From: an uncultured Alphaproteobacteria bacterium
GTDB lineage: Bacteria; Pseudomonadota; Alphaproteobacteria; CAAHEQ01; UBA3637
Reading direction: 5' to 3'
Length of the DNA: 64,000 nt
Assembly (NCBI GenBank): GCA_944392555.1
Contig: CALXWZ010000002.1
Span: forward strand, 59,085-123,084
This document shows positions 33,205-34,659 of the stretch, one piece after another; positions within the stretch are counted from its first letter, which is position 1; each line of letters opens with the position of its first letter. Position numbers and translations under genes: made by a program. Below the pieces are notes generated by a model, which did not search any database, had not been told where the DNA came from, and was given only the letters and a program-made list of their open reading frames with translations.

Positions 33205-34659
33205 TTATAGTTCTTTGAACATAGACATGCCTTTGAATAAGCGTGTAGATTGCGCTTCCATCAACGTGCCGAGGCTGATACGTCCTTCCCGAATGGCGTT
33301 GCGGAGTTGATCCGGCGCCAATGGATTCGGATTTGCAAAGACGGTGGAAATAACCGGATGCAAAACCGTTGTTCCTTCCAATTTCTGATGAACAACCGCT
33401 AAAATGCCCCGTGCGAGTAAGTCGGCAACAAGTTGCTGATCTAATCCGGCACCCATGGCGTATTTAATGATTGAGTTCAAAGCATCTTCCACACTGGTGG
33501 CGTGAATGGTAGATAAAACCAAGTGTCCGGAAGTGGCCGCCCGCAAAACTTGCGAGGCAACTTCGGGAGACCGAATTTCACCGACCAGAATATATCTCGG
33601 CTTTGAACGGAGGGCGGATTTAATCCCGTCTTCCCAATGTTCGTTTTCAACCGGACATTGTTTACATAAACCCAATGCGCCGTTACGGGCTTTATAAAGG
33701 CCGTCAAGAGGCATTTCGGGAGGGTCTTCAATCGTGTATAAGAATCCGCCGTGTTGCTCTAAAAATTCTTTCATGAGCGCAGAAGCCGTTGTTGTTTTAC
33801 CCATACCCGTCGGACCGCCGAACAATATCAATCCCGATTCGGTTGCCAATGTGGCTAGATAGCGGGTAATGTTGTCGGGAATGCCGAGTTTATATAAATT
33901 CGGTGTTTCCGTCGGCATTTTACGGCAGTTATATTGCACGCCCGTTACCGTAACGACGCGCTCCACACGGTAATTTTCGCCCGCAAAGCGTAAAGCATAA
34001 CTGGATGAACCCGTATAGCCTTGTTCAAGCGCTCGTAAAAATTCATCTTGGTCTTCGGCTTCAAAGCGAATTAATGCAAATTTCGTTGTTTTATCGCGGA
34101 TATAGTTAATACCCTCCGGCGTATACCAACAGTCGGCAAACTTAACATCGCCGACGGATTTTGCCTTAAATACGCGTTCACCGTTCGGGAGTGTCTCCGT
34201 ATGAGGCTCAAAAGTATCTTGTGCTTCGCCGTTTGCTTTGGCTGCTGCCGCTTCTTCCCGCTCTTTGCGGTGTTCAGGCGGTGGTGCATACTGACTGCCG
34301 TTTTCGGCAGAGGCAACACTTTGAGCCGGCCGAGCGTATTTATTTTCGGTTGGCATTTCGGTAGGCAACGAAGAAGCAGAGGTCTCTTGCGTTGCTGATG
34401 GTGTATCGGGTATGTGCGTCGGTATCGTCGGTTGCGACGGCATATTTGCGGTATGTTGAGCAGATACGATCGGCGCCGGCGCAGGTGCTACGGCAGAAAG
34501 CCCGCGATTGGGTATCGGCATGGCAGGTTTCGGACGCATTGATGAGGTGTAATCGGCGCTTGGCGCAGGGCGCGCGCCTGACTGCTGTGTGGCCACATTT
34601 GGCGCAGATGACGGCTTTGTTGATATGTTAGCTGTTTCTTTTTTCTTTAATGCAAACAT
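33205..34659 (-). CDS. PilT/PilU-family (type IV pilus retraction-like) AAA+ ATPase with an about 140-aa Pro/Ala/Ser-rich N-terminal extension
   Basis: Walker A GGPTGMGKTTT, Asp box TIEDPPE, Walker B YILVGEIRSPE, His box GHLVLSTIHATS. The N-terminal third is low-complexity (PAPSADY...PAPAPIVS). Confidence 0.75.
   Translation of the reverse strand: MFALKKKETANISTKPSSAPNVATQQSGARPAPSADYTSSMRPKPAMPIPNRGLSAVAPAPAPIVSAQHTANMPSQPTIPTHIPDTPSATQETSASSLPTEMPTENKYARPAQSVASAENGSQYAPPPEHRKEREEAAAAKANGEAQDTFEPHTETLPNGERVFKAKSVGDVKFADCWYTPEGINYIRDKTTKFALIRFEAEDQDEFLRALEQGYTGSSSYALRFAGENYRVERVVTVTGVQYNCRKMPTETPNLYKLGIPDNITRYLATLATESGLILFGGPTGMGKTTTASALMKEFLEQHGGFLYTIEDPPEMPLDGLYKARNGALGLCKQCPVENEHWEDGIKSALRSKPRYILVGEIRSPEVASQVLRAATSGHLVLSTIHATSVEDALNSIIKYAMGAGLDQQLVADLLARGILAVVHQKLEGTTVLHPVISTVFANPNPLAPDQLRNAIREGRISLGTLMEAQSTRLFKGMSMFKEL

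Follow-up and report, generated by a model that had tools for sequence, protein, structure and literature searches.

An ATPase gene of the pilus-motor type that stands alone among housekeeping genes raises the question of which machine its product serves. Such a gene lies on the minus strand at positions 33205..34659 of the window, by which we mean the whole 64-kb stretch analyzed here (contig CALXWZ010000002.1 of assembly GCA_944392555.1, positions 59,085 to 123,084, from an uncultured alphaproteobacterium). A first-pass annotation had described the gene as an orphan PilT/PilU-like ATPase with a disordered, proline-rich N-terminal extension of 140 amino acids (aa). Our analyses revealed that it encodes a BfpF-type PilT-like ATPase that is detached from its operon and carries a lineage-specific disordered tail, and that it is a recognizable part of a known machine. 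As judged from homology and from the gene order of relatives, the protein is probably the motor that retracts pili in a type IVb system whose genes are dispersed.

The open reading frame (ORF) begins with an ATG and specifies a product of 484 aa, with the following features.

33205..34659, minus strand: whole gene, encoding a BfpF-type (type IVb) PilT-like ATPase with a disordered N-terminal extension (ORF, Pfam T2SSE match, conserved homologs, PilT-like fold)
34661..34670, minus strand: purine-rich ribosome-binding site, aaggggaaag, 1 nt before the ATG (read from the sequence)
34210..34659, minus strand: disordered Pro/Ala/Ser/Thr-rich extension, residues 1 to 150 (predicted local distance difference test [pLDDT] values, low conservation, variable length, composition)
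34636..34659, minus strand: short motif 1, MFALKKKE, residues 1 to 8, consensus M-[FLI]-[FL]-x-K-K-P (frequency compared with shuffles)
34327..34338, minus strand: short motif 2, YARP, residues 108 to 111, pattern [YF]A[RKP]P (frequency compared with shuffles)
34279-34290, minus strand: second copy of motif 2, YAPP, residues 124 to 127 (pattern match)
33895..34209, minus strand: PilT-type N-terminal (PAS-like) domain, residues ~151 to 255, with arginine motifs YRVERV and CRKMP (confident beta-rich AlphaFold2 domain; ~325 to 330 columns aligned with PilT, PilU and PilT4 structures)
33208..33894, minus strand: RecA-like ATPase domain, residues 256 to 484, with all four boxes and LRNAIREGR (translation, Pfam, alignments)

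The ATG start is backed by the ribosome-binding site and by an N-terminal motif, MF[AS]LKKKE, that is kept in close homologs. Alignment of the translation to PilT and BfpF located the Walker A motif (GPTGMGKT, residues 282 to 289), the Asp box (TIEDPPE, residues 309 to 315), the Walker B motif (RYILVGEIR, residues 355 to 363) and the His box (HLVLSTIHA, residues 379 to 387). In a 21-sequence family alignment these four nucleotide-binding boxes show little or no variation, and arginines R231, R234 and R246 are invariant. An AIRNLIRE-like motif is partly kept as LRNAIREGR at residues 452 to 460 (AIRNLIREDK in PilT), and the protein stops ~24 residues later. The single Pfam domain in the protein is T2SSE (PF00437; 105.8 bits, residues 231 to 427). 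AlphaFold2, run with the family alignment, models the core confidently from about residue 150, and the top Foldseek matches are PilT2 from Thermus, PilT4 from Geobacter, PilU and PilT (E values of 4e-21 to 1e-17, ~325 aligned columns, 23 to 26% identity), with DotB ranking next and then PilB/GspE. The predicted architecture is a two-domain PilT fold without N1/MshEN domains or a Zn finger. Thus, the PilT hallmarks that the first-pass annotation saw in the C-terminal part are indeed present, both as the four boxes and as a fold match to PilT, PilU and PilT4. The fold and the boxes also occur in BfpF-type ATPases, however, and do not discriminate between PilT and BfpF.

Family models and pairwise comparisons placed the ATPase more finely. 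Its best match in NCBIfam, the pilT_fam model TIGR01420, reached 119.2 bits against a cut-off of 319.1, and the other family members and nearest outgroups scored 96 to 141 bits against the same model. The second-best match was ComGA (97 bits vs. a cut-off of 300), followed by DotB (TIGR02524, 78.4 vs. 463.3 bits), the extension ATPase models (73 to 77 bits vs. cut-offs of 617 to 676; GspE, 617 to 630), TraJ (TIGR02525, 70.1 vs. 368.3 bits) and a TadA-like model (TIGR03819, 50 vs. 373 bits). DotB and TraJ were compared through these hidden Markov model (HMM) scores and through structures only, and no curated BfpF-type model was found. In a profile search of 1.84 billion representatives, full-length family members scored 367 to 730 bits and the next full-length group at most ~215. 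Among 72,556 plasmids, the top annotated match was BfpF of enteropathogenic Escherichia coli (EPEC), annotated as "bundle-forming pilus retraction ATPase" (32% identity over 93% of the core, E value of 1e-34), and the other top matches were ATPases at the BfpF position in other type IVb operons. On a trimmed alignment, core identity was 32 to 38% to BfpF-type ATPases, 27% to YggR, and 23% to both BfpD and Pseudomonas aeruginosa PilT; the PilT sequence used is identical to that in Protein Data Bank (PDB) entry 3jvu.

A neighbor-joining (NJ) tree nested the family in a BfpF-like radiation (bootstrap values of 58% for the family and 54% for the radiation), with PilT and YggR outside it (97%) and the extension ATPases farther off (100%). 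In the alignment the family shares with BfpF the signatures EDPPE...G and PRYI[LF][VL]GEIRS as well as a short C-terminus. The genomic surroundings of the nearest groups were of one kind, in that all five neighbor contigs examined (P0268, P0262, P0395, P0252 and P0254) proved to be type IVb pilus clusters in which a long T2SSE ATPase and a T2SSF platform protein stand beside the short ATPase. The nearest outgroup representatives (P0268, P0262 and P0395) also encode PilM and, variously, PilS, Shufflon_N, secretin and TcpQ; the sister representatives (P0252 and P0254) encode a secretin and Peptidase_A24, and PilO is among the genes seen variously in the five clusters. The sequence comparisons, with moderate tree support, identify the BfpF-type short second ATPases of type IVb operons as the nearest subfamily. 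Because the TIGR01420 score lies below the cut-off and P. aeruginosa PilT is only 23% identical to the core, as against 32 to 38% for the BfpF-type proteins, the ATPase does not belong to type IVa PilT/PilU. The earlier designation PilT/PilU-like thus holds for the fold and fails for membership, and the phylogeny that had been proposed against the known ATPase clades points, with moderate support, to the BfpF-like radiation, with DotB and TraJ judged by HMM and structure.

The partner genes came to light in relatives. One metagenome scan with a prepilin N-terminal helix as the query yielded three loci, L175 (a 122-kb contig), L185 (a 76-kb human-gut contig) and L177, each of which carries a full operon resembling that of the bundle-forming pilus (BFP). 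Its genes encode, in order, a protein of unknown type (388 aa), TcpQ, Secretin, PAP_PilO, a second protein of unknown type (483 aa), a long T2SSE ATPase, a T2SSF platform protein, a small ORF, a PilS_N/Bundlin pilin and, last, the family ATPase (324 to 332 aa). The long T2SSE ATPase (560 aa) is 34 to 37% identical to BfpD and the platform protein 33% identical to BfpE, and the operon-embedded family ATPases are 52 to 53% identical to the query core over their full length. Since a separate extension ATPase stands in the same operon, the family ATPase is the second ATPase of the system. The pilin encoded directly upstream of it has the N-terminus ...EQSG/RSMVEMLGVLAIIGVLS in all three loci (here and below, the slash follows Gly -1). 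These operons tie the family to type IVb machinery and to pilins of the RSMVE type. Thus, the family both falls within a known subfamily and has, in relatives, a complete set of partner genes, which goes halfway toward removing the orphan status that the gene had been given. Past the type IVb operon, at 12987-15869 in L175 and also in L177 and L185, lies a conserved trio of genes for a VWA-domain protein, a PP2C phosphatase and a Ser/Thr kinase, which could be a signaling module tied to the pilus locus.

The detached members of the family are widespread. Homologs 52 to 99% identical across the C-terminal two-thirds, and 324 to 631 aa long, were recovered from a search of 5.8 billion proteins. 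Of 185,579 species-level genomes scanned, at least 235 carry a relative. Nearly all of the 80 that were listed are labeled as metagenome-assembled genomes of uncultured Alphaproteobacteria, mostly from animal gut, rumen or feces, and they include "Acetobacter sp. CAG:977"; some homologs carry the pipeline names "TadA" (generic) or "twitching motility protein PilT". We called ORFs and clustered neighbors in 85 ATPase loci, and in all 85 the ATPase was solitary, with no conserved partner gene adjoining it and clusters that show only housekeeping synteny (rimP-nusA-infB, mfd, znuCB and recA). In group A (~40 loci, including the window and L006, a 90%-identical relative) the ATPase gene is divergent beside rimP-nusA-ylxR-infB, in group B mfd is close by and an lpxB-containing block is convergent with it, and in group C (the CAG:977 type) it comes after znuC-znuB and encodes only ~321 aa, without an extension. 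A tblastn search with BFP, Methylobacterium and sister-lineage machinery against all ATPase-anchored loci returned only ATPase cross-matches and three PilV-like pilins. A lone position is not unusual in itself, because the E. coli K-12 PilT-family gene yggR likewise sits isolated among housekeeping genes, between yqgF and yggS. In the literature searched, neither the family nor any orphan PilT-like ATPase of these bacteria with a disordered tail is described. A search for homologs of the sister lineage's platform protein gave 11 matches; of those followed up, one was an IncI-like conjugative element and the other an unrelated cluster, in which an MshEN-type PilB-like ATPase is accompanied by another T2SSE protein, T2SSF and an N_methyl pilin. 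In the relative P0049, locus L004 (18820-21380) holds a gene for a VirB11-like ATPase (329 aa) adjoining one for a 2354-aa TrbI/VirB10-domain protein, 8 kb from the detached ATPase; this gene pair indicates that some of these gut Alphaproteobacteria also carry an unusual component of a VirB-type type IV secretion system (T4SS).

The window shows the same housekeeping setting. It is an alphaproteobacterial housekeeping region, with secE-nusG-rpl-rpoBC, prfB, sdaA, rimP-nusA-infB, ruvB, tolQRAB, ptsP, glk, TrcR and dnaKJ, and the ATPase gene is divergent from the adjoining rimP-nusA-infB. How the detached state may have arisen is suggested by the NJ family tree rooted on BfpF, which is without support values. 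In that tree the operon-embedded, tail-less members branch first and group C, mostly tail-less, branches next; groups A and B are nested deeper, with the query in A. The tail lengths mapped on this tree depend on the start-codon rule used. The right flank of the L175 operon (phosphoribosyltransferase and redoxin genes) is orthologous, at 35 to 45% identity, to the right flank of the group C loci L079 and L085, which is consistent with a rearrangement that severed the ATPase gene from the operon.

The N-terminal tail is disordered. Nearly all of residues 1 to 122 have pLDDT values below 50 in the AlphaFold2 model, and the first 140 aa consist of 18% Ala, 16% Pro, 12% Ser and 9% Thr, in agreement with the disordered, low-complexity N-terminus described earlier. 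In a 121-sequence alignment the conserved core begins at about residue 160; the extension is therefore real and somewhat longer than annotated, at about 150 to 160 rather than 140 aa. Across homologs the tails range from 0 to ~300 aa (0 to 297 listed) and cannot be aligned, and their family-wide composition is 17% Pro, 11% Glu, 10% Ala, 10% Thr and 9% Ser. Close homologs differ in tail length by in-frame changes, which demonstrates that this part is translated. Within this hypervariable sequence two short motifs recur. Motif 1 was found in 81% of 113 extensions, as against 5% of composition-matched shuffles, and motif 2 in 59% as against 2%, at a median of 58 residues ahead of the core. The tail is missing from the operon-embedded members and from most of group C and is 55 to 300 aa long in groups A and B. 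Thus, it is a trait of the detached lineages of the family and not of one gene alone.

A precedent for such a tail exists in CpaF. The N-terminal disordered region of class II CpaF is nearly exclusive to Alphaproteobacteria; its loss leaves ATPase activity unaffected, full pilus dynamics require it, and it is thought to mediate protein-protein contacts (PMC12019362). In the present family the most plausible role for the tail would be that of a flexible tether, or of a regulatory arm, with its conserved peptides binding either a partner or the membrane. It is conceivable, though unlikely, that after unlinking from the operon the tail became a new recruitment or regulatory module, a hypervariable Pro-rich tether with a terminal M-F-F-x-K-K-P and an internal [YF]A[RK]P peptide, that would time and place retraction on a pilus with a huge repertoire of pilin-headed proteins, among them Cys-rich proteins of ~1000 aa. 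In a stronger form of this proposal, the ATPase would now drive a function other than classical pilus retraction.

The candidate substrates of the system are encoded both in the window and in its relatives. The first-pass annotation had pointed to a giant, Cys-rich, pilin-like protein as the only other pilus-like element, and this protein proved real: the plus-strand ORF at 47023..50058 encodes 1011 aa with 78 Cys, has no Pfam match, and contains a prepilin-type N-terminus, YG/RSMVEMLGVLAVIGVLSVAG, at nt 47296 (MAEYG/RSMVEMLGVLAVIGVLSVAG from the probable start).

47284..50058, plus strand: giant ~924-aa Cys-rich protein with a type IVb prepilin head, MAEYG/RSMVEMLGVLAVIGVLS (probable start TTG at 47284, preceded by aagagg)

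The N-terminus of the giant protein differs little from that of the bundlin/PilS-type pilin beside the family ATPases in L175, L177 and L185. The link between the ATPase and the giant protein, which the earlier reading had hinted at, gains support from the same N-terminus on the major pilin whose gene immediately precedes the family ATPase gene where type IVb operons are intact. The giant gene probably represents the substrate class of the ATPase's system, a functional connection that these shared heads suggest. The operon pilin N-terminus SG/RSMVEMLGVLAIIGVLS (of the form G/RSMVEMLGVLA...) also heads dispersed pilin-like genes in detached-ATPase loci, and a prepilin-type N-terminus ESG/RSMVEMLGVLAIIGVLSVGG, with Gly at -1 and Glu at +5, was seen in several ATPase loci and in the giant window ORF. 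Pilin-headed proteins, small and large, are numerous in related metagenomes, where 7,823 of 8,000 scored candidates reached E values of 0.001 or lower. Their genes are scattered singly or in small arrays amid housekeeping genes, and three dispersed pilin contexts (P0125, P0201 and P0184) contained housekeeping genes only and no machinery. Near the ATPase, a strict motif scan of 1.45 Mb gave 11 pilin matches, to which PilV-like giants in three more loci are added; these are raw counts, from which no enrichment is claimed.

Two further observations concern these genes. Proteins of 960 to 1110 aa with a different pilin-type N-terminus, G/ALMLEAIALLGLMTMM, are encoded in L079 (1680-4814, minus strand), L085 (1897-4785, minus strand) and L065 (714-4055, plus strand). 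Their first ~260 aa resemble the Shufflon_N-domain (PilV-position) pilin of a Methylobacterium type IVb cluster; each gene is followed by one for a conserved 243- to 279-aa membrane protein and lies ~5 kb upstream of a group C detached ATPase gene. At 9032-10396 in L087, a serine recombinase gene (Resolvase, PF00239) directly precedes a dispersed pilin gene of the RSMVE type, so that pilin variation could be under invertase control, as it is in shufflons.

Taken together, the data suggest the following model, in which the product is a short PilT-fold "second" ATPase, the counterpart of EPEC BfpF, in a system of the BFP or R64-thin-pilus class. By analogy with BfpF and PilT, its hexamer would dock on an inner-membrane platform protein of the BfpE/PilR class, and ATP hydrolysis would lead to pilus retraction, with pilins pulled from the filament base back into the membrane. 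The filament subunits would likely be the many G/RSMVEMLGVLAIIGVLS-headed proteins, including the giant protein at 47284-50058. In the lineage of the window the gene would have become detached from its operon, come to lie beside rimP-nusA-infB and there gained its tail. Because prepilin-type genes are abundant in the detached-ATPase loci and in the window, a working prepilin peptidase and assembly machine would be expected in these organisms. The first-pass annotation had offered a choice between a stand-alone retraction or secretion ATPase serving a distant system and a diverged regulator-type PilT. Between these, the retraction option is the best supported and nothing that we found favors the regulator.

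Several results weigh against this model. A Pfam scan of ~40 window ORFs of at least 150 aa, together with one small ORF beside the ATPase gene, detected no T2SSF, secretin, prepilin peptidase, PilM-Q, second T2SSE or T4SS genes in the 64 kb, in line with the earlier remark that pilus genes are missing nearby, and no platform, extension ATPase, secretin or prepilin peptidase gene was found within 10 kb of the ATPase in the 83 detached loci. Bootstrap values reach no more than 54 to 63% for the family and for the BfpF-like radiation, and the tree that orders the appearance of the tail is the one without support values. The small dispersed "pilins" are recognized by their N-terminal 25 to 30 residues only, and Pfam gave no significant match for them or for the N-terminus of the giant protein. 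Moreover, homology and gene position are the sole grounds for inferring retraction, rather than extension or a bifunctional role, and any function of the tail is conjectural. Finally, in Rs-D84, a reduced order of gut Alphaproteobacteria, type IV pili have been reported only for a different lineage (PMC12306168). Rs-D84 is reported to lack glucokinase (PMC12306168), and because the window encodes this enzyme the genome may belong to another order.

If the type IVb machine had been lost in the detached lineages, the tailed ATPase could be a relic motor put to new use, serving another envelope machine such as a VirB-type T4SS or acting in a regulatory or assembly-chaperone role. The gene is always solitary in the 83 detached loci, some 1.9 Mb of related sequence yielded no machinery once the three operon loci are excepted, the tail appears only after detachment, and the VirB11-like ATPase and giant TrbI/VirB10-like protein of L004 lie 8 kb away, all of which such a change of use would accommodate. 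We nevertheless regard it as unlikely. Pilin heads of the operon type are abundant in the same loci and in the window, implying a working peptidase and assembly machine; the catalytic and PilT-type motifs are invariant; and the T4SS of L004 has its own VirB11. In addition, the 1.9 Mb consists of the surroundings of ATPase and pilin genes only, and thus does not show that the machinery is absent. That the protein is instead an extension motor, or a single bifunctional motor like the Tad ATPase CpaF, is improbable, because the operon-embedded members coexist with the separate long, BfpD-like ATPase (34 to 37% identical to BfpD) and the family clusters with BfpF and not with BfpD. The AIRNLIRE-like motif is of the PilT type, and the Cys-containing C-terminal insertion of BfpD is absent from the alignment. 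What speaks for such a role is that ComGA, a small assembly ATPase, is the second-best NCBIfam match (97 bits), that CpaF performs both jobs with one ATPase bearing an N-terminal disordered region, and that a second ATPase was not seen in the window.

The two remaining explanations would assign the ATPase to other classes of machine, and both are very improbable. A canonical PilT/PilU twitching-motility ATPase of a dispersed type IVa pilus would account for the top NCBIfam model, for the top PDB matches in sequence and fold (PilT, PilU and PilT4) and for the pipeline name "twitching motility protein PilT" on some homologs. No BfpF-type structure is among the PDB matches, however, so that the structural ranking probably cannot split the classes, and the measures that can do so disagree with a type IVa assignment: 119 bits against a cut-off of 319, and 23 to 27% identity to P. 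aeruginosa PilT and YggR as against 32 to 38% to the BfpF type. The protein also lacks the PilT C-terminal extension, and the operon members sit in type IVb and not in type IVa operons. A DotB/TraJ-type ATPase of a type IVB secretion or conjugation system is scarcely credible for similar reasons: although DotB structures are the next-best fold matches, TIGR02524 and the TraJ model give 78 and 70 bits, and type IVb pili often go with conjugative elements (as in L102), these scores fall far under the cut-offs of 463 and 368. No Dot/Icm or Tra genes lie beside any family member, and the contexts are chromosomal and of the housekeeping type. A retraction motor of the BfpF type is the explanation that we retain.

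Other features of the window lie outside this argument. The 950-bp gap downstream of the ATPase gene contains no small (Flp-like) pilin gene. A 76-aa ORF at 32473-32703 (plus strand), convergent with the ATPase gene, has no Pfam match and is followed at 32761-32787 by a strong terminator-like hairpin; L006 has a 78-aa ORF at the corresponding position. Just past the ATPase stop codon, at 33028-33107, a noncoding 34-bp unit is repeated 2.4 times in tandem (91% match). Directly downstream of rpoC, two adjacent plus-strand paralogs of ~1040 aa (14266-17373 and 17545-20703) encode BspA-type leucine-rich repeats (PF13306), a domain type found in known bacterial surface and adhesion proteins, and have similar N-termini (..SQ[KR].VLS[QK]IGMLD[YF]PDIE..). 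The gene at 21059-22378 (minus strand) specifies a secreted product of 439 aa in which TTTSPL repeats extend over a long stretch ahead of a Cys-rich part (32 Cys), again without a Pfam match.

The result for the ATPase itself is mostly ordinary, and the pilus with its pilin repertoire is the broader by-product. A widespread and uncharacterized "TadA/PilT" annotation in uncultured gut and rumen Alphaproteobacteria can now be assigned to a BFP-like type IVb pilus, and these organisms encode such a pilus along with a very large family of pilin-headed proteins. In known systems, type IVb pili function in aggregation, adhesion and DNA transfer, and the finding bears on how uncultured gut bacteria with small genomes adhere to their hosts or to one another or to further cells. 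For the function of disordered tails on pilus motors the family provides a ready-made series, running from operon-embedded members without a tail through detached members without a tail to detached members with one.

Comparison with the known motors places the window ATPase at different distances from each. With PilT and PilU (TIGR01420; PDB 3jvu, 2ewv, 6ojx and 9n32) it shares the fold, the domain order, the catalytic boxes and the AIRNLIRE-like motif, as well as a gene that is often unlinked from pilus genes, as yggR is in E. coli; it differs in scoring below the family cut-off, in its 23 to 27% identity, in lacking the PilT C-terminal helical tail, and in belonging to a family that goes with type IVb machinery and not with that of type IVa. 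DotB of the Legionella Dot/Icm system and TraJ of IncI plasmids are likewise PilT-like hexameric ATPases of similar fold, but they are only 20 to 22% identical in structural alignments, their HMM scores are far under the cut-offs, and the family has no context of the type IVB secretion kind. From the extension ATPases BfpD, PilB and GspE it is set apart by the lack of BfpD's Cys-containing insertion and by an identity to BfpD of 23%. The tail finds its best precedent in CpaF, the class II Tad motor of Caulobacter and other Alphaproteobacteria, which is a pilus motor with an N-terminal disordered region. CpaF belongs, however, to another subfamily, is bifunctional, and has a three-helix bundle and a disordered region of ~79 aa, whereas the tail of the window ATPase is longer, Pro-rich and hypervariable and arose independently. 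The closest likeness is to BfpF and the other short ATPases of type IVb systems, with which the protein has in common the two-domain PilT fold of ~320 to 335 aa, 32 to 38% identity across the core, the EDPPE...G and PRYI[LF][VL]GEIRS signatures and the short C-terminus. The L175, L177 and L185 genes even stand at a bfpF-like operon end after the platform gene, with the pilin gene between. In contrast to BfpF, which has no tail, the window gene is detached and adds a disordered tail of ~150 aa with short motifs, and its family forms a clade of its own in the NJ tree (58% bootstrap) that is drawn almost only from uncultured Alphaproteobacteria of the gut and rumen.

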